Under the pieces are notes generated by a model. The model was not told where the DNA came from. It saw only the letters and a list, made by a program, of their open reading frames with translations, and ran no database searches. This document shows positions 1,352 to 9,472 of a DNA stretch of 11,280 nucleotides, in pieces; within the stretch, counting starts at the first letter, position 1; each line of letters opens with the position of its first letter. The DNA comes from Candidatus Phoenicimicrobium oleiphilum (GTDB lineage Bacteria > Atribacterota > Phoenicimicrobiia > Phoenicimicrobiales > Phoenicimicrobiaceae), in NCBI GenBank assembly GCA_039638295.1, contig JBDIWJ010000048.1:1-11280 (forward strand), given 5' to 3'. The translations under genes were made by a program, and so were the position numbers.

Positions 1352-1593
1352 TACCTATCACTTACTTTCTTTGTAATACAATATAAAGAATCTGGTTTAT
1401 CTGAAGTAAGATTCTGGCATAAGGATGAGCTTTTATGTGTATAAAAAATTAAAACTTTGATTTAAATTAGTATACTTTTAACTTTTAGCTAACATAACCC
1501 ATACGAGCACATTATATGGAGGACACGCTGGCTTTTCTTGAGAGTACCATTTTGCTATAATTTTATCACTACAGCAAGCCTTAACTCTGACTC

Positions 1594-2826
1594 TCATATT
1601 TTCTCTTTTATATTTGGGATGGTGTATAAAAATAGGCCAAAAAATACTATAAATATTCCTATTAATATCATCAGTATTCTAACGCTAACTATGTTTAAAG
1701 CATAACCACTGAGAGCAAGTGATATTGGTAAAAGTCCGTTAGTTAATGCTCCTATAATGGCAAAGACTCGTCCTCTTTTTTCATTTGGTACTGTTTTTTG
1801 GACGAATACATTTATTAATATATTAACTAATGCGAATAGGAATCCAATTTTAAATGTCAGTATAAGTATATACCATAAACTAGGAAACAATGTAAAGAGT
1901 ATAAGCAGACTACCAATCCCAACTATCCCCCATATTACTGGGATATATTTTCGCTTTATCTCAGGCGAGATAGATAAAAAAGTTCCTCCCGATACAATCC
2001 CAAGTGAAAACAATGTCATCAAGATGCCAAATTCCTTTGTACCGTATCCCAAATCCATCTTTATGTATTTTGCGAAGATCAAATCTACTGGTCCAATGAA
2101 GAAGCTCAAAGCGGTGAAAGTAATGAGACCTTTCATCAAATAATCACGCCTCAAGATGAAATGAAAACCTTCTTTCAGATCCTTTACGGTGTTCTTAATT
2201 GTTATATTAGCGGAAGGAGGAGAAGTCATCGAGATAAATATCTCGCTTATTCCCGAAAAGAAGTAAGTGATGCCATTAATCAGGAAGACAAATGGAGCTC
2301 CGAAAATAGCTATTAAGAGCCCACCGACACCAGGCCCTAAGACATTCGAAATTTGGTTTCCCGTAGTATATAGAGAATTCGCGCGTGTAAGGTATTTATA
2401 AGACACTATATTTGGAATACTCGAAATAATAGCAGGATAGAAGAAAGCCCCAGCGAATGATATCAACAATGCTATGACATAGAGATGCCCTATCTGTAAG
2501 GTACCTTTCAATGCCATTAAAGCCATCCATACAATAATAACCCCTCTAAACAAGTCTGCCAACACTATAATCCACTTTCTACTCGTTCTATCCACCACTA
2601 CTCCTGCTATTGGGCCAATTATAACACGTGGGAGTACCGAAAGGGCAAATACATTCCCAAGTACGACTGAAGACCCTGTAACATCCAGCACCCACCACAT
2701 CAAGGCTATGTTGTATATTGAATCACCGAATGCAGATACTATTTGTCCTATCCACAACAGTAAGAAATTCTTGTTAAAAAGATTCGTCTTTAGACCAACC
2801 TTTGTGCTTTCATCTTTAGTAAGTAT
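1594..2826 (-). CDS. MFS transporter, DHA3/MefA-like efflux family
   Basis: About 12 hydrophobic segments, motif A GVVVDRTSRK and C-terminal VPNEKRGRV. The ORF track starts at TTG 2757, but the frame is open upstream through the typical TM1 lead-in NKNFLLLWIGQ to an in-frame TGA at 2833-2835. GAGGT (2836-2840) lies 9 nt before ATA 2826, so the start is uncertain (2757 or 2826). Confidence 0.88.
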   Translation of the reverse strand: MLTKDESTKVGLKTNLFNKNFLLLWIGQIVSAFGDSIYNIALMWWVLDVTGSSVVLGNVFALSVLPRVIIGPIAGVVVDRTSRKWIIVLADLFRGVIIVWMALMALKGTLQIGHLYVIALLISFAGAFFYPAIISSIPNIVSYKYLTRANSLYTTGNQISNVLGPGVGGLLIAIFGAPFVFLINGITYFFSGISEIFISMTSPPSANITIKNTVKDLKEGFHFILRRDYLMKGLITFTALSFFIGPVDLIFAKYIKMDLGYGTKEFGILMTLFSLGIVSGGTFLSISPEIKRKYIPVIWGIVGIGSLLILFTLFPSLWYILILTFKIGFLFALVNILINVFVQKTVPNEKRGRVFAIIGALTNGLLPISLALSGYALNIVSVRILMILIGIFIVFFGLFLYTIPNIKEKI

Positions 2827-2881
2827 AGTTTCTCAACCTCTTTTCCTATTGTCTACTAATACCATTAATATTAATGGTATG

Positions 2882-4066
2882 CTATTCAAGAATGTCTATG
2901 GCTTCTTTATATCTTTTCTGACAAGCCAATGCAAAACTTGCTATTTGTCTTACTCCATAATTCTGAGAGATTTCAGCATATTTTAGAATTTGTTCACTAA
3001 TTCCTTCTAAAGGAGAAAATCCTTCTGTAATACTTGTTAGAAGAGCTTTTAGGTTCAATAACACATTCAATGTTCGTTCTTGTATAGGCACCAATCCATT
3101 AGAGTGAAGTTCTAATACCTTGATTTTTTTTGTTTGTTTTTGATTGCTCTGTTTTTTAATATTTAGCAATTTAGTTATTTCTTGACTTTTTTTAACTGGT
3201 AAGGAAGAAAGTAAACTATTCAAGCTAATCAAATCATTATGATTAATTAATTTATAAGTATACTCTTTTTTAGTATACAAGTCCACATATTCTTTCAATT
3301 CATTGATCGTCTTCTTCCGGGACATCAGAAAAGATGACAACCAATTTAATTCGTTCAAATTCTCTTTGTTGTTACTCTTGGGGCGACTAAAAAAATATCT
3401 TAGAGCTTTATCACTTTTTGTAGATATTACTAATGCGCTTTCCCAAAGTGGTATCAAAGCTACTCGGGCACCTTGCCTGCACAATTCATTGGCAATGCTA
3501 TAGGTAATAGATTTGGGTTTATATTTTTCTGGAAACATAAAATTAAGTGCAATATATTTCATTGATGGATCAAAACAGTGCAAAAAAACAAAACCATCTT
3601 CAGGGATATGCTTCAAATATTTTCTCAAATATTCTTCTTTATATGCTTTCTGAACATATCCATTTGTATCATACAAATCTACGACTATAGCATTAAATAG
3701 GTTATTAGGATTTAAACTATCAATGTAAGTACAAGCTTCCTTTATGACAATAGATAGATTACTATATGACAACCATCCTTTCCTTTTTAACTCTGCTATC
3801 ATTTCTTCATTGTTTTCCACGCCTATACAAGTAGGAGTTACTTTCCATTTGCTTAAAATTTCCAGCGTTGTACCTCCACCAAGTCCTAACATTAAAAACT
3901 TTTTTACTTGTGACTTATAAACTGCCCATGCAAGATAATCCCAGTAATTGAAAGTAATATTATATTTATCTGGCTTTATTGAAAAAGTCATTTGTTTTTG
4001 ATACTTTTTTCCCTTGATTTTTATTATTCTATCCTTTATCAATAGTTTTATAGACATTTCCTTCAC
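2882..4066 (-). CDS. Class I SAM-dependent methyltransferase of spermidine-synthase-like fold with a C-terminal extension
   Basis: Motif I FLMLGLGGG, acidic residue after beta2 (GVENNEEM) and FNAIVVDLYD. The C-terminal ~170 aa are unassigned and end in a TPR-like helix pair (RQIASFALACQKRYKEAIDILE). The start may be ATG 4057 rather than GTG 4066. Confidence 0.75.
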   Translation of the reverse strand: MKEMSIKLLIKDRIIKIKGKKYQKQMTFSIKPDKYNITFNYWDYLAWAVYKSQVKKFLMLGLGGGTTLEILSKWKVTPTCIGVENNEEMIAELKRKGWLSYSNLSIVIKEACTYIDSLNPNNLFNAIVVDLYDTNGYVQKAYKEEYLRKYLKHIPEDGFVFLHCFDPSMKYIALNFMFPEKYKPKSITYSIANELCRQGARVALIPLWESALVISTKSDKALRYFFSRPKSNNKENLNELNWLSSFLMSRKKTINELKEYVDLYTKKEYTYKLINHNDLISLNSLLSSLPVKKSQEITKLLNIKKQSNQKQTKKIKVLELHSNGLVPIQERTLNVLLNLKALLTSITEGFSPLEGISEQILKYAEISQNYGVRQIASFALACQKRYKEAIDILE

Positions 4067-4973
4067 TCCCCAATCTTAAGTTTAATTTTTTCACTTTGCA
4101 AAATATATTCATTGCCTTCTCATTCTTTTCAAAACTAATGTTTGTAGCCCAATTTATAACTTGCCAATGATGTCTATACCATAATCTCCAATGTTCGGGG
4201 GACTTTAATATCTCTTCTCGGAAATATTTAAAACATTTCTCTGCTCCTTCCTGAACCTTATTTGTCTCAATAAAAACAGCTGGATATATTATAAGCTCTC
4301 TTTTTCCTTCGTTAATTCTCGTTATTACTGGAATAATAGGTTTATGAAGCCTTCCCATTAATCGAAATAGCCCACTTCTTATATAAATCTTAGAAGAAAG
4401 AAAATTCACATTAATAGGTGAACTATCGTTTCCAACACCTGTATTTCCATCTAAATAAACGTAGACCCAGTTATTATTAGAGATTAATCTGTACAATTTT
4501 AATCCAATATTAACTTGCTCTGCAATAATAAATTCGACGCCTACTTTCTTATACTTCAGCTTTATTTCTTCATTATATGATTCTTGGTCCACAAGCATTA
4601 TAAATTTTAGTTTAGGAACTCTTTTTAGCAAAAGTTGGGCAACAGCACGTGGACCATATCTATAATCACCATAATGAAAACTAAGTAATATCCCCCCTTC
4701 TTTTACCCATTCCATTATATTCTCCACTCCTATAATCTTATCAAAACCTGAAAATAAATACGGATGCTTTCTATAAATATTTGTCATCATATTATGGATG
4801 CGATAATTAATCCATGTCTTTCTAATAGAAGACCTTGGTTGTATGGGAAGAATTTCTTTGATTAGATTTGAATAGCTTATAAAATAATCGAAAGAAACCC
4901 CCTTAAACTTTTCATAAAGAAGGGAGATCTTAAGGAGTTCTTTGCAAAACCATAATAATAATTTTCTATCCAT
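4029..4973 (-). CDS. LpxL/LPLAT-superfamily acyltransferase (lipid A lauroyltransferase-like)
   Basis: GGILLSFHYGDYR (cf. LpxL HxGNWE block), VYVYLDGN (cf. LxDQ), VNFL, PIIPV and the C-terminal PEHWRLWYRH (cf. PEQWxWxHRRW). Confidence 0.72.
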   Translation of the reverse strand: MDRKLLLWFCKELLKISLLYEKFKGVSFDYFISYSNLIKEILPIQPRSSIRKTWINYRIHNMMTNIYRKHPYLFSGFDKIIGVENIMEWVKEGGILLSFHYGDYRYGPRAVAQLLLKRVPKLKFIMLVDQESYNEEIKLKYKKVGVEFIIAEQVNIGLKLYRLISNNNWVYVYLDGNTGVGNDSSPINVNFLSSKIYIRSGLFRLMGRLHKPIIPVITRINEGKRELIIYPAVFIETNKVQEGAEKCFKYFREEILKSPEHWRLWYRHHWQVINWATNISFEKNEKAMNIFCKVKKLNLRLGSEGNVYKTIDKG

Positions 4974-4987
4974 CCTTATCCTAAATC

Positions 4988-6064
4988 CTACAAAAATAAT
5001 CTCTTTAGACCATCTAAACAGTATGCTAAAATTTTAATCGGTAAATCATTTTTTTCTATTCCTTTTCTAACAGAGCCTTCTACCAAATCTATTCCGCAGA
5101 AAGGGATTTTTAAGCAAAATAATCTATCTAAAAAATTTAATAATTCCATTCCCATAGGTCCTCCTGAAACGGGAGAATCAACAAAAGGGAACTCAATCGG
5201 ATTAATACAATCCAAGTCTATGCTCAAGTAGAAACAAGCTTTGGGATTTTCTTTTTTAATGTTATCTAATTTATTAAATATTTGATCTGTAGAAAAATCT
5301 AGAAATCGAAATACTTTTGGGTCTTCTTTTAATTGAAAAACAGAACGTAACCCTCTAGTACCTATTTGAAGAATCTTTTCCACTTTATCACATTTTAATA
5401 GGTGGAACACAAAGTTGCTATTATTTATATCTTCGAGAGGTATCACTCTATAGCCAGAGTCATGGTGTGCGTCAAGTATTACTAGAATGATATCTTTTCC
5501 AAACTGCTCAATAAAAGCTTTCAGAATAGCATATGTTATAGAGTGATCTCCTCCAATTGAAATTAAAACACTTTGATCAGGTAAATTTTTAACAATTGTA
5601 AAGATGACTTCATAAAGATGATTTAAACTCTCCAGGGGTAAAAGTAAATCTCCTAGATCTTTAATTTTTAAGCCCCTAAATAATTTTCTACCTTGTCCAA
5701 TATCAAAAAGTCCAGAAGTTCCATTCCCTTCTATCTGGGAGTAAATCGGGTATTTGCAACTTAATTCTCTCAAATGTTTAGGAAATTTGTCGACTGTTGT
5801 GTTTGGAGATATTGAGCCTTGCTTATATGGGATCCCCAATAACAATACGTGTGGTTGACATGGAAAATATTCTTTGCAATTAAAAAAGTTGTATGGATAT
5901 TTCTTTAGCAAATATCCTAACTCATTATAAGGATTCTTATCTTGCGTTTCCAAAGAAAGTTTATCTCGTTTTGTTTTCCAAAATTCTTCAAAATTTCCAT
6001 CCGTAACTATGAGTTTTCCTTCTCCAGAATAAAAAATGTATTCAGGCTTTTTTATGGTCTCCAT
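4988..6064 (-). CDS. Arginase/agmatinase (ureohydrolase) family protein; candidate peptide arginase
   Basis: Mn-binding motifs GGDHS, DAHHD and SIDLDCINP, plus LLGIPY, DLGD, QIGTRG and PVSGG. About 70 aa of N-terminal extension precede the fold. Confidence 0.88.
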   Translation of the reverse strand: METIKKPEYIFYSGEGKLIVTDGNFEEFWKTKRDKLSLETQDKNPYNELGYLLKKYPYNFFNCKEYFPCQPHVLLLGIPYKQGSISPNTTVDKFPKHLRELSCKYPIYSQIEGNGTSGLFDIGQGRKLFRGLKIKDLGDLLLPLESLNHLYEVIFTIVKNLPDQSVLISIGGDHSITYAILKAFIEQFGKDIILVILDAHHDSGYRVIPLEDINNSNFVFHLLKCDKVEKILQIGTRGLRSVFQLKEDPKVFRFLDFSTDQIFNKLDNIKKENPKACFYLSIDLDCINPIEFPFVDSPVSGGPMGMELLNFLDRLFCLKIPFCGIDLVEGSVRKGIEKNDLPIKILAYCLDGLKRLFL

Positions 6065-6644
6065 AAAATAAACCTTTCTTATAAATACGAATTAATTTTT
6101 CGATAATCCTTATTATAATTGTAGTGCTAATTACTCCCAAAGATAAATTAAATATACCCTTGTGATCAATAGCATTTTGTACTATAAGTATTTCTGAAAT
6201 AACTCCACTTGTATACAAAATATAAAATATTGTCCATTGAGCAAGTCTAAACAATTTATTCATCAGTTTTCTATTCCATTTAGATGTTATTTGGAAGATA
6301 TAATAGCCATCTGAGGGTTTAACCGGGACAATATTTAAAGCAATAACCCCTAAATATAAGAAACTAAACAACTTAAGATTTGGAAAAATATTTTGTAATA
6401 AAAAAGCAAAATTAAACAAAAACTGAAACGTAAATCCTGCACTTGTTAGCACTAATTTTTTCATATCAGAGATATCAATATCAAATTTTATTTTACTATA
6501 GTACAAGGGAGGAACTTTTTTTACAATTACTATTTTCCCATTTCCACCTATAAAGTATGCTGTAATTAAATGGCCAGCTTCATGAAGCAAAGGCATAAAC
6601 AATATATAAAAGATAATTAATATACTTTCCAAAATCATTTCCAT
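6042..6644 (-). CDS. Site-2 protease / peptidase M50 family membrane zinc metallopeptidase
   Basis: HEAGH (HExxH) in TM1, NIVPVKPSDG (NxxPxxxxDG third Zn ligand) and several TM segments. Overlaps the next gene by 23 nt. Confidence 0.85.
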   Translation of the reverse strand: MEMILESILIIFYILFMPLLHEAGHLITAYFIGGNGKIVIVKKVPPLYYSKIKFDIDISDMKKLVLTSAGFTFQFLFNFAFLLQNIFPNLKLFSFLYLGVIALNIVPVKPSDGYYIFQITSKWNRKLMNKLFRLAQWTIFYILYTSGVISEILIVQNAIDHKGIFNLSLGVISTTIIIRIIEKLIRIYKKGLFYGDHKKA

Positions 6645-6701
6645 TATACTTTCTTGGATATTTTAATTTAATGCTTAAATTTGAATAAAATGTAAAGCAA
6701 T

Positions 6702-6737
6702 TGACATAGAGGCAACTTTAAAGTTGCCTCTATGTCA
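6702..6737. terminator. Perfect 36-bp inverted repeat after the precursor gene (leaky terminator or mRNA-stabilising hairpin)
   Basis: TGACATAGAGGCAACTTT/AAAGTTGCCTCTATGTCA is an exact 18+18 palindrome, 14 nt after the TAG of the 32-aa ORF. Only an interrupted U-tract (ATTGCTTTACATTTT) follows on the minus strand. Confidence 0.75.
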
Positions 6738-6751
6738 TAAAGCTGTTTACT

Positions 6752-6850
6752 CTAGCATCTAATAACACATCTGATCACGTTACATTCTAAATCTTCCAAT
6801 TCTTTAGGATCAATTTTTTCTAATTCCTTTTTCTTCTCATTTTTACTCAT
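6752..6850 (-). CDS. Small peptide, putative RiPP precursor (32 aa: MSKNEKKKELEKIDPKELEDLECNVIRCVIRC)
   Basis: Manual translation from ATG 6850 to TAG 6752-6754. SD AAAGGAGGTGA ends 8 nt upstream. A charged leader-like N-terminus precedes a Cys/Arg repeat C-terminus. It is followed by a hairpin and is the first gene before the tailoring enzymes. Confidence 0.85.
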   Translation of the reverse strand: MSKNEKKKELEKIDPKELEDLECNVIRCVIRC

Positions 6851-6891
6851 TGTGGAACTCACCTCCTTTCTTGTAATTTTTCATCTCTTAC

Positions 6892-6920
6892 AACATATAA
6901 AGGTAGAACTATTACTGCAA
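6892..6920 (-). promoter_or_regulatory. Candidate sigma70-type promoter for the precursor operon
   Basis: TTGCAG (6920-6915), 17 nt spacer, TATGTT (6897-6892), about 40 nt upstream of the precursor ATG. Imperfect matches in AT-rich DNA. Confidence 0.35.
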
Positions 6921-7094
6921 CATTGAATAGCATCACTCACCTGCTACCAAACAATTTTGACAAATAATTTAGTGCATAATACAAACATTGTCTTTAGTTG
7001 CTGTTTTTGCATTCTCCCAACATTGTCCAACTGATTTTTCCCTTGAAACATGATGCCATTAGTAATAAGGAACGGGGCTATGAACATTTCCTAC

Positions 7095-7232
7095 TTATCT
7101 CTCCACCATAACAACCACAGGTGAAAAACTCTGTACCTGTTGGCTATCAGAAGATGGATCTCCTAAAGCTACGCTATTTATACATAAGCTAAGACTAAGA
7201 GCAAGAGCTACGGCAATGAAAAGTTTTTTCAT
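7095..7232 (-). CDS. Small secreted peptide, putative quorum-sensing propeptide (45 aa: MKKLFIAVALALSLSLCINSVALGDPSSDSQQVQSFSPVVVMVER)
   Basis: Manual translation from ATG 7232 to TAA 7095-7097, with SD GGGAG upstream. Classic Sec signal: MKK, a hydrophobic h-region and a SVA/ALG cleavage-like site, then a ~21-aa tail. Divergent from the TPR+HTH regulator. Confidence 0.78.
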   Translation of the reverse strand: MKKLFIAVALALSLSLCINSVALGDPSSDSQQVQSFSPVVVMVER

Positions 7233-7376
7233 TTATATCTCTCCCTAATATTTATATTTTTTTGAGTATATACCTCTCCATATGACTTTCAAATTTGGCA
7301 GGCCCTAGAACGCCTATGAAATAAAGGTTTGAAGGGCATAATTTTTATGTATTTTTGGCATTTATAAAAATTCGGT

Positions 7377-7431: not shown

Positions 7432-9087
7432 ATGAACATAAAAGTACCTCAGGTAATTGATGTACTGATGAAGTATGGTTCATTTGCCATGCCCTTGGTG
7501 AATTGGACCTTAAGCAATGATAATCTAAATCCTGCCTGGGAAGAATATTTTAAAGCTATAAGATACGATTGGCAGAAGGAATACACCCTCGAACTTAAGT
7601 GTATAGATCGAGGAATTAGAAGATGTAGAGATGATCAGACGGTTAAGTACCTGCTTTTGTCCTTGGAACTCTCTGTACTTCAAAATCTTAAAATGCCAGA
7701 AGGAAATAGATTGTATATTAAGTTGAGGAGAGAATTTTACAAGGTGCCAAAATTGGCGAGAAAGACAGTCGCTACAACTTTATTGAGTTATCCGTCTTTG
7801 AATATGAATGAAACGGACTTGGCAAAAATACGATTATGGAGTCAATATTATCAAAATGATAGGTCAACACAGGTATTCATTCTTTTGGGGAAGGCGAGGA
7901 AAAAGATAAAAACGGGAAACATTACAGAAGGTATAGCTCTTTACTTTAAAGGCTTGAGAATTGCGAAGGCAATTCCTCACCCTACAGGTATAATAGATAG
8001 TTTGAACGACTCGGCATGGTATATGCGATATAGCCATCCGCATTGGGCACTTAGATTTGCCAATCAGGCAATGTATTGGGTTGGATGGTATCGTGAAGAT
8101 GCCAGAGGCGTGTTTTACGTATTTGATACTTTTTTTGAGATCCAGAGAATAGTTAGTGACCAAAGATTATGTGAGACTGCAAATTTGATAGCTTCATTAC
8201 AGAAGTATCTTTCTTCAGGACAAGGGAGAAGCAAAAGGGAATACTACAAAGAAACCATCCAAGGCTGTAAATACTTTATCTTTGATCTCAAAAGCTCAAT
8301 GTACAAAAATTCCAATTCCCTGAGAAATTATCTGAGAATTTTTATGAAATCCATATCCTCAGCTTCAGTGGATTCAAACCTATCCAGAGGAAAACTATCT
8401 GCCATATTAAATGGTAAAACAAAAACCGTGCGCGGAGAAACGATAAGAAAGTTGGTAAAAGGATTGAAGCTTAAACCAAATCCATTAAATGATCCTGCAC
8501 CCCTTATCAATGAATGGATGAAAATGAAGATAGAGGATGCATTTTTCGATGCTCTTGAGAAACTCAAGGGAATAAAGCCAAATGATAGAATCGTATTACT
8601 CTTATCCACATATATGAGTATTCTTGATAGGAAGGAAAAACTTTCTTATCTAAGCAGAAAAAGGAAATTGAAACGGGCGATTGAATTCTGTACAGCGGAT
8701 ATGCATAAATTCACGAATTTTATGTCCAACAGATACGAGACAATGAGATTCGTATCTGATATGATAAGCGAAATGCATCCATTTTTAGAAGGAAGAAAAG
8801 ACCTTGTAAAGAAGTTTTTAGGAAAGATGCCCAAGAAGAGGATGAGGATGTTTGCTGCAGATTATGCCGAATTGACAGAGGGAGACCGTAAGACTGTTGA
8901 TGTCTTTGCAAGGGACTACACAAGATACGACTTGAGGTGGAAAGTTTACCTAAAATTACCTGTCGAATTGAAAGAATTTGTGGAATTCTTTCATCTCAAG
9001 AAAAGACCATCTACGCTTGCATCTTTTGCGTCTGAAAGACCGGCTGAGAGGAATAAGATCTTACGTGTATTTCAGGCACTCCGATGA
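7432..9087 (+). CDS. TPR-like repeat + XRE-type helix-turn-helix transcriptional regulator (candidate peptide-sensing, RRNPP-like receptor)
   Basis: 551 aa with a strong SD. TPR-like helices (LGKARKKIKTGNITEGIALYFKGLRIAKAIPHPTGIIDSLNDSAWY...ALRFANQA) and a Cro/C1-like HTH at about residues 305-345 (SISSASVDSNLSRGKLSAILNGKTKTVRGETIRKLVKGL). Confidence 0.72.
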   Translation: MNIKVPQVIDVLMKYGSFAMPLVNWTLSNDNLNPAWEEYFKAIRYDWQKEYTLELKCIDRGIRRCRDDQTVKYLLLSLELSVLQNLKMPEGNRLYIKLRREFYKVPKLARKTVATTLLSYPSLNMNETDLAKIRLWSQYYQNDRSTQVFILLGKARKKIKTGNITEGIALYFKGLRIAKAIPHPTGIIDSLNDSAWYMRYSHPHWALRFANQAMYWVGWYREDARGVFYVFDTFFEIQRIVSDQRLCETANLIASLQKYLSSGQGRSKREYYKETIQGCKYFIFDLKSSMYKNSNSLRNYLRIFMKSISSASVDSNLSRGKLSAILNGKTKTVRGETIRKLVKGLKLKPNPLNDPAPLINEWMKMKIEDAFFDALEKLKGIKPNDRIVLLLSTYMSILDRKEKLSYLSRKRKLKRAIEFCTADMHKFTNFMSNRYETMRFVSDMISEMHPFLEGRKDLVKKFLGKMPKKRMRMFAADYAELTEGDRKTVDVFARDYTRYDLRWKVYLKLPVELKEFVEFFHLKKRPSTLASFASERPAERNKILRVFQALR

Positions 9088-9472
9088 TCAATTATTCAGT
9101 CCTACTGTGGCTGAAGATATTGCCTTTGGTCCTCTAAACTTAAGAAAAAATCGTCAAGAGACTGAAAAGATTCTAAAAGAAACCTTAGAGACGTTGGGTT
9201 TAGCTGGTTTTGAAGATAGGATTACTTATAATCTTTCCTATGGAGAAAAAAGATTAGTTTCTCTGGCTACGGTATGGGCGATGCAGCCAGAGATTTTATT
9301 GCTTGATGAACCTACCATCTGGCTTGATGAGGGGACTATCGAAAAGATAGCTCAAATCTTAAATAGCCATCATCAGTTATCTTACATAATTATCTCTCAT
9401 GACAAAGAATTTTTAGAAGAAACCACTAATTGTACTTACCTTATGGATAACGGAAAGATAAGAAAAATATAA
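9067..9472 (+). pseudogene. cbiO: 5'-truncated CbiO/EcfA-type (Co/Ni ECF transporter) ABC ATPase
   Basis: Retains the post-Q-loop segment SDDQLFSPTVAEDIAFGPLNL, signature LSYGEKR, Walker B ILLLDEPT and H-loop ISHD. There is no Walker A. The first ~33 aa of ORF 8978-9472 are off-frame regulator sequence. Confidence 0.85.

Follow-up and report, generated by a model that had tools for sequence, protein, structure and literature searches.

A short repeat peptide encoded with an arginase and a lipid-A-type acyltransferase in Candidatus Phoenicimicrobium oleiphilum: a candidate family of ribosomal lipopeptides

The precursor gene and its neighbours

The stretch of DNA analysed here, which we call the window, covers positions 1 to 11,280 of contig JBDIWJ010000048.1 of Candidatus Phoenicimicrobium oleiphilum. 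In it, a 32-codon open reading frame is followed on the same strand by genes for an M50 protease, a PF00491 arginase, an acyltransferase, a SAM protein and an MFS transporter, in this order, with the four enzyme genes overlapping or lying at most 14 nt apart. The features are as follows.

1594..2757 (minus): MFS transporter (MFS_1, E=1e-44); homologous loci have MFS or MATE
2882..4066 (minus): SAM-binding protein, spermidine-synthase-like fold, below profile cut-offs; orthologs in L006 and L007 (see below)
4029..4973 (minus): lipid-A/PatA-type (LPLAT) acyltransferase, 314 aa, placed by fold search
4988..6064 (minus): arginase-family hydrolase, PF00491 (E=1e-29)
6042..6644 (minus): M50/site-2-type intramembrane metalloprotease; HEAGH and NxxPxxxxDG kept in the alignment
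6702..6737 (minus): 16-bp terminator-like hairpin with T-rich tail, 3' of the precursor stop and 5' of the enzyme genes
6752..6850 (minus): precursor peptide gene, 32 aa, with homologous precursors in other loci (see below)
6755..6781 (minus): conserved core NVIRCVIRC (Arg27, Arg31, terminal Cys32), identical in both L006 copies, NVVRCVVRC in L007
6785..6850 (minus): charged leader, residues 1-22, from the alignment; probable boundary at 22/23
6861..6867 (minus): ribosome-binding site AGGAGGT, 10 nt 5' of the ATG
6875..7317 (minus): upstream module, a conserved untranslated stretch plus a 45-aa signal-peptide-like ORF; second copy on contig C25
7095..7232 (minus): the signal-peptide-like 45-aa ORF, ending V-x-E-R
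7432..9087 (plus): divergent 551-aa helical protein with a weak HTH match (HTH_26, E=0.02)

The peptide, MSKNEKKKELEKIDPKELEDLECNVIRCVIRC, is built as an earlier note on this DNA had described it, with a charged 22-residue leader and a C23-x4-C28-x3-C32 core ending in Cys. The codons reported there are exact as well: the two VIRC units (GTG ATC AGA TGT and GTT ATT AGA TGC) differ at three positions and the two KELE units of the leader (AAG GAA TTA GAA and AAA GAA TTG GAA) at two, all of them synonymous. Taken together, the gene has what one generally looks for in a RiPP precursor, namely a small ORF with a ribosome site, a leader and a core, conserved beside maturases. As a chance control, we took all ATG-started ORFs of 25-45 aa from a six-frame scan of the same genome, 3188 in total: a tandem four-residue repeat is found in 6 of them and AGGAGG or GGAGGT upstream in 12, while both occur in just 1, which is 6752-6850. 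A profile built from seven homologous precursors placed this ORF at the top of 42481 segments, at an E-value of only 0.1. The hairpin behind it (observed 1, expected from shuffles 0.4) has counterparts 3' of the precursors in L006, L168 and L173, and it would yield a surplus of precursor transcript. One could still argue that the ORF is incidental or untranslated. Namely, the Pfam and NCBIfam profiles gave no family match for the 32-aa peptide, and three RNA-library runs from oil-field samples (X1-X3) cover the region at flat depth, with contigs of up to 106 kb, which resembles DNA, so that these runs show no expression. However, the ribosome site, the terminator, the synonymous-only divergence and the position in 26/26 loci, both discussed below, contradict this reading, which we regard as extremely improbable: 6752-6850 is almost certainly a real precursor gene.

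Several observations concern the surroundings of the cassette. The frame of the MFS gene extends about 29 codons 5' of the TTG at 2757 (2757-2860, minus) without any ATG, GTG or TTG; its true start may be an in-frame ATA, or there may be a frameshift, and the same is seen in L003 and L084. Downstream of the cassette, the window holds a GNAT gene (881-1351) and a second MFS gene (both within 3-1351, minus), neither of which is present in the Bacillota loci, those of L006 and L007 included in the case of the GNAT. In our own phylum set, the cassette was found in 2 of 86 genomes only, that is, its own (G000) and one from another genus of the same family (G025). In G025, the region from about 1400 to 6940 is more than 99% identical and the right flank 85-90%, which indicates that the precursor and the enzymes move as one unit; the block reflects either a recent transfer or a binning mix-up. 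The GNAT lies at the edge of this block, and identity drops to 96% at the GNAT and second MFS genes. GC content is 30% in the cassette enzymes and 37% in the right flank.

The upstream module has an 89% identical copy on contig C25 of the same genome and was not seen in the Bacillota loci; a further genome (G017) carries it on a contig that ends before the cargo. Its 45-aa ORF varies near the C-terminus among G025, G017 and C25. The divergent 551-aa protein, encoded in 3 of 30 family genomes, is possibly a regulator of the cassette, and together with the 45-aa ORF it looks like a peptide-signal/regulator pair. On C25 (19145-25934, our locus L192), the second module copy is followed by a 50-aa ORF (L192 8276-8428, minus), a 476-aa radical SAM/SPASM maturase, an MFS fragment, a 650-aa B12 radical SAM protein (best match ApyD, under the cut-off) and an ABC-F protein. 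Judged by gene content, this is a second, unannotated RiPP-like cluster, and one module would thus head two unrelated peptide clusters. What is more, a truncated ECF-type ABC ATPase (8978-9472, plus) overlaps the 3' end of the 551-aa gene, and an intact cobalt-type ECF operon lies beside the second cluster on C25, which suggests that the two clusters occupy related insertion sites.

Homologous loci and conservation of the peptide

The arginase profile led to two loci, in Lysinibacillus mangiferihumi (L006) and Bacillus stratosphericus (L007), with the same gene order: MFS, TetR, precursor, M50, arginase, acyltransferase and SAM protein. The former has two precursor genes ending NVIRCVIRC and the latter one ending NVVRCVVRC. 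The enzymes of L006 are about 35% identical to those of the window; for the acyltransferase, the identity is 34% with L006 and no more than 37% with any of 25 others. Over the nine core codons, the window differs from each L006 copy by 8 bases, 8 of them synonymous and 0 non-synonymous, and from L007 by 7 synonymous bases plus 4 bases in two Ile/Val codons. It is this comparison between genomes that provides the real evidence of selection on the peptide. The earlier note had reached the same conclusion from the repeats within the gene, an argument that is weak alone and in fact circular, because repeats picked for identical residues can differ only synonymously; the conclusion that the precursor is under selection at the protein level nevertheless stands on the comparison between genomes.

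For the analysis that follows, we used 26 loci, namely the window, 16 Paenibacillus loci (out of 25) and every other strong match. In 26/26 of these acyltransferase loci, a short ORF with a ribosome site lies directly upstream of the operon, so similar ORFs do accompany homologous enzyme clusters; 11 of the precursors were located by position and the others through a leader pattern written from those 11, and hence are not independent. The earlier note had further predicted that the number of xxRC repeats should vary near homologous M50/arginase genes, and ORFs with 1, 2, 3 or 4 units were indeed found: one VIRC unit in L168, L173 and L174, two units in the window, L006 and L007, three RC units in L190 and four DIVRC units in L189. 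In Paenibacillus, there are 5-20 xxRA units. Across eight aligned precursors, only Arg27-Cys28 is invariant, along with a leader motif around E-L-x-x-L-E, which the second half of our leader matches. The view of KELE as a conserved repeat did not survive this alignment: only the second unit has counterparts, inside the motif P/I-x-x-x-E-L-x-x-L-E, and the first is private to the window.

The loci fall into types that differ in their accessory genes. In Paenibacillus (L169, L170, L175-L188), the five-residue repeats ending RA are encoded upstream of a 13-gene operon with fatty-acid genes, the arginase, the acyltransferase, an M16 pair and a PPTase. At least 18 related loci add an ACP, three FabH-like enzymes, an ATP-grasp protein, a PLP decarboxylase, an acyl-CoA dehydrogenase and a PPTase; this set of added genes is reminiscent of the aminoacyl-ACP pathway of butirosin. 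The M50 gene is missing in 19/26 loci, and the annotated ones among them carry an M16 pair; this pair replaces M50 in the Paenibacillus-type loci, L171, L172 and L190, which also carry a MATE transporter. L190, with its RC units and fatty-acid genes, bridges the types. L171, L172 and L190 each encode a single protein of 741-759 aa that joins the acyltransferase to an M16 peptidase subunit, and in L172 an assembly gap spans an apparent tandem array of precursor genes.

As to the spread of the family, genome searches with the acyltransferase profile were positive in 1 of 91 genomes, in 5 of 201 genomes and in 25 of 93 Paenibacillus genomes, and gave three strong and two marginal matches in 401 Bacillales genomes; the one match in 401 Lachnospirales genomes (E=3e-4) was judged to be noise. 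The full profile search returned 31 clusters (at 50% identity) with E<1e-30 and 156 with E<1e-10, together with a second tier of proteins of 370-390 aa. Its members come from, for example, Petrotoga mexicana, where the arginase and acyltransferase locus tags are adjacent, Candidatus Acetothermia, Parageobacillus, Evansella, Mechercharimyces and Sulfobacillus. One acyltransferase gene, in G360, has internal stops. Two arginase scans yielded at least 160 loci, among the listed ones of which the acyltransferase profile matched only L004-L007, L084 and, weakly, L085; ORFs were read in five of them (L004-L008). In one of these, from Bryobacteraceae (L008, 3811-7981), a 50-aa ORF with an acidic leader and a Cys/Arg/Lys-rich tail sits between larger genes and precedes a distant arginase with an N-terminal extension, possibly another arginase RiPP. 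A degenerate DNA pattern of the core, run against viral contigs, gave three matches, all of them in shadow frames of phage genes and none accompanied by an enzyme of the cluster. Plasmids gave one weak acyltransferase match (25%), at a fatty-acid-type locus of Bacteroidota beside lanthipeptide genes. On a Chondrinema plasmid (L167, 7875-15791), a distant acyltransferase homolog heads a fatty-acid-synthase-like operon that adjoins genes for a lanthipeptide dehydratase and cyclase.

Arginine, the cassette enzymes and the proposed pathway

Which residue, then, would the enzymes act upon? The earlier note had reasoned from three Cys residues, which would allow one disulfide plus a free or acylated thiol, dimerisation or metal binding. 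This reasoning does not carry over to the family: C23 is absent in 7/7 aligned homologous precursors, the single-unit precursors have one Cys and those of Paenibacillus have none, although C28 and C32 of the window peptide could still pair in a disulfide. Arg, on the other hand, is the sole residue common to RC-type and RA-type units, and several of the latter (AAARA, VAARA) contain no other side-chain nucleophile. In addition, the terminal units covary with the arginase. In the 24 loci with an arginase, the precursors end RC or RA, and in the two without it (L171 and L172) three precursors end KC. The genomes of the latter two have no cluster-type arginase anywhere, the best score being 82-84 bits vs 302-345. 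Since the enzymes of L171 and L172 are identical and sister to L190 (tree support 96/94), which has an arginase and RC units, the swap of Lys for Arg is to be counted as one event. With Arg conserved, and Lys in its place in loci that lack the arginase, chemistry at Arg and ornithine is more likely than a role for thiols or metal binding.

The arginase scores 104 bits against PF00491 (cut-off 22) and keeps the metal ligands H174, D198, H200, D202, D283 and D285, with the six Mn ligands invariant in 24/24 cluster arginases. It is not of the OspR type (PF12640): PF00491 is its sole match at E up to 0.1, and it has GGDHS instead of EEH(N/H)EAF. Its residue Asn215, at what is presumably the position of the active-site His after the DAH-x-D motif, is His in 23/24 aligned cluster arginases and in solved relatives, and Gln in three further homologs; on the strength of this residue, the window arginase may be weak or dead. 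One could, therefore, also imagine that Arg stays in the peptide, either because the substrate of the arginase is a small molecule or the acyl donor (a guanidino-acyl chain), or because the enzyme has no activity in this genome. In keeping with this, its best solved relatives are arginases, agmatinases and a guanidinobutyrase, and a spermidine-synthase-like gene sits in the same operon. However, the enzyme falls far under the agmatinase cut-off (85 vs 302 bits), branches in a clade of its own, carries an extra N-terminal sheet (three strands at 9-31 in our model, with no three-helix bundle), and is present exactly where precursors end R-x, all of which makes this reading improbable in our view. 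A plain polyamine operon and a GNAT-type selidamide were considered too, and both rank low.

The acyltransferase has no Pfam match, and a sequence search against the PDB returned 0 matches, its placement coming from the fold search only. Its model (pLDDT 81) finds PatA (E=5e-10) and LpxM (E=3e-9) in Foldseek, with TM values of 0.55-0.59 by query and E from 5e-10 to 1e-8 for PatA, LpxM and LpxL, and in the Atlas it groups with an LpxL/LpxP cluster of 56 proteins, mostly from Bacillota (TM 0.91); of seven homologs scanned, three lie above the PF03279 cut-off. The motif of LPLAT and lipid A acyltransferases is an HX4D/E dyad. In the cassette family, H100-x4-R105 has Arg instead of Asp/Glu in 26/26, and D175 and E136 are invariant alternatives to the acid. 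A three-strand sheet is modelled at its C-terminus (287-309), again with no three-helix bundle, where a full RRE would comprise three strands plus three helices, and the N-terminus of the SAM proteins resembles these sheets of the arginase and acyltransferase models; that the leader docks there is a guess made from the models. PatA and LpxM, the solved relatives by fold, act on hydroxyl groups of sugars or lipids and are not known to acylate amines. A fold that normally makes esters, and a terminal Cys that none of the 8 homologous RC-type and 3 KC-type precursors lacks, might speak for acylation of Cys as a thioester in RC-type cores, as the earlier note had allowed. Against this, 16/16 Paenibacillus precursors lack Cys and their loci retain an acyltransferase in which the 23 invariant residues are unchanged, and we consider thioester formation highly unlikely.

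The M50 protein keeps HExxH and NxxPxxxxDG in a membrane protein, with Pfam scores that stay under the cut-offs: the window protein matches PF02163 at E=0.03 only, and its homologs PF13398/PF02163 at E=3e-5 to 4e-3. It is likely the leader peptidase. Proteases of the M50 type are known to process RiPPs, as reported for TglG and TmoG (in the accessible part of PMC10885120) and for the daptide M50/site-2 protease MpaP (likewise, daptide preprint), and EpeP acts similarly. Since the residues that TglG and TmoG remove from C-termini derive from Cys, and every RC/KC precursor ends in Cys, the peptide could in principle be a scaffold from which M50 trims small modified C-terminal units, such as acyl-Orn-Cys, in the manner of pearlins. 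However, there is no PEARL-like gene among the listed ORFs, and an M50 gene is absent from most of the loci, the annotated ones having the M16 pair in its place; the chances of this reading are slim. Finally, the SAM protein occurs in 3/26 loci, exactly those with an N-VxRC-VxRC core, and would be a methyl- or aminopropyl-transferase, while the MFS transporter is likely the exporter.

Putting these elements together, we propose, with somewhat better than even confidence and on the basis of the gene itself, its conservation, the synteny and the enzyme folds, that 6752-6850 encodes the precursor of a ribosomal lipopeptide in which Arg is turned into ornithine and the side chain then fatty-acylated. 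In particular, Arg27 and Arg31 would become ornithine by action of the arginase, and the side-chain amine set free in this way would receive a fatty acyl chain from the PatA/LpxM-fold enzyme. Transfer of a methyl (or aminopropyl) group would fall to the SAM-fold protein, removal of the leader at the membrane, probably near the 22/23 boundary, to the M50 protease, and export of the product to the MFS transporter. The acyl donor would be a housekeeping acyl-ACP or acyl-CoA here and a dedicated ACP-bound chain in the Paenibacillus-type loci, where the ACP and FabH-like genes fit a transferase that uses acyl-ACP. As for the first of these steps, KgrD offers a precedent for a PF00491 arginase acting on a peptide (accessible part of PMC12703449). 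A predicted complex of the acyltransferase with the precursor scored 0.41, the best of three controls reaching 0.00, which lends weak support; the mark for such scores was reached by 116/157 solved complexes and 2/215 mismatches, yet the passing complexes at or below 0.60 comprise only 18 solved ones and both mismatches. At least 63% of contacts were common between the runs, with a partner pLDDT of 56-58. Counting against the proposal are Asn215 of the window arginase, the Arg of the HX4R site, the hydroxyl substrates of PatA and LpxM, and the single origin of the swap of Lys for Arg.

The main alternative keeps the precursor and the arginase step, and places the acyl chain on the new N-terminus after proteolysis, either of the whole core or of each repeat, with ornithine left free or N-methylated. 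Lipolanthines, goadvionins, lipoavitides and aphotorhaptins are N-acylated after leader removal (accessible part of PMC13647313), and enteropeptins contain N-methylornithine (same of PMC12703449). What is more, the fusion of acyltransferase and M16 subunit would suit such a scheme, and precursors with up to 20 repeat units suggest release of single units. That said, N-terminal acylation leaves the appearance of Lys at the Arg position upon loss of the arginase unexplained, and the narrow distribution of the SAM protein (3/26 loci) speaks against it as well. We therefore hold it to be rather unlikely, and retain side-chain acylation as the preferred reading.

Relation to known systems and significance

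The closest parallel is provided by the selidamides (kamptornamide, phaeornamide and nostolysamides), which likewise have a gene-encoded precursor with an arginase and a fatty acyltransferase, and use Arg with an arginase or Lys without (accessible parts of PMC8784127 and PMC13647313). Among them, acylation on Orn depends on an arginase, and the nostolysamides carry the acyl group on Lys (PMC13647313, same part), an alternation that the covariation described above would, by analogy, mirror. However, in selidamides the acyltransferase is a GNAT, the arginase belongs to PF12640, the leaders are of the NHLP/Nif11 type with Gly-Gly, and there is a class II lanthionine synthetase (same parts of PMC8784127 and PMC13647313), whereas the cassette has a conserved transferase of PatA/LpxM fold, a PF00491 arginase, a leader of about 22 aa, repeated units of 4-5 residues, an M50 or M16 protease and no lanthionine enzyme; neither an NHLP/Nif11 leader nor such a synthetase was matched by Pfam or NCBIfam profiles in the peptide and 12 window proteins. 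In other words, the logic of the cassette is selidamide-like, but it lies outside the selidamides, having no conserved GNAT, NHLP/Nif11 leader, lanthionine synthetase or PF12640.

Other systems share single elements. Enteropeptins have a PF00491 arginase that acts on a peptide, followed by a methyltransferase, but need a prior radical-SAM thiomorpholine and an Fe-S methyltransferase and involve no acylation, as far as the accessible part of PMC12703449 describes them; the window has no radical SAM enzyme, of the kind found in enteropeptin and sactipeptide clusters, and the one on C25 has a precursor of its own. The orphan peptide-arginase types SCIFF, SCCRRSCN, DD(I/V)LF and MGXRRSSE also have short Arg-containing precursors beside arginases; all are PF12640, and no xxRC or xxRA repeat type is listed in that part of the source (PMC12703449). 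Lipolanthines, goadvionins, lipoavitides and aphotorhaptins resemble the Paenibacillus-type loci in having dedicated fatty-acid genes beside the RiPP genes, but use GNATs for N-terminal acylation (accessible part of PMC13647313), and the cassette has no such cyclase. Daptide MpaP and epipeptide EpeP share with it an intramembrane site-2/M50 protease in a RiPP cluster; MpaP has an RRE domain (daptide preprint, in part), for which the cassette-family proteases, at 184-200 aa, are too short, and the daptide tailoring enzymes are missing. Among the LPLAT enzymes (PF03279), PatA and LpxM/LpxL have the fold and the catalytic His in common with the cassette acyltransferase, which differs by HX4R and the C-terminal sheet, and by sitting in peptide operons, many of them in monoderm Bacillota. 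Among the main texts of the open literature searched, none reports these core motifs or combines a RiPP with an LPLAT/lipid A acyltransferase; within that literature, this is an undescribed RiPP family of the lipo-RiPP kind.

A wider proposal, which we put forward only tentatively and which is doubtful as a whole, is that of a RiPP class in which an HX4R lipid-A-type acyltransferase N-acylates every ornithine of a tandem-repeat core. This would give comb-like lipopeptides (two chains here, up to about 20 in Paenibacillus) or, from a single gene, numerous copies of a very small lipopeptide, with leaders docking via a helix-less three-strand sheet and a secreted-peptide/regulator module switching on unrelated RiPP clusters in this genome. 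The fatty-acylating RiPP enzymes named in the accessible part of a paper from October 2026 (PMC13647313) are all GNATs. If our reading is true, a membrane-lipid acyltransferase superfamily would work on peptides, and would add a new biocatalyst with which peptide drugs could be lipidated. Experimentally the family is tractable, with five small genes and culturable carriers in Bacillus stratosphericus, Lysinibacillus and 25 of the 93 Paenibacillus genomes searched. Finally, the precursors are short enough to escape annotation, and a common Paenibacillus cluster may thus have an unrecognised product.
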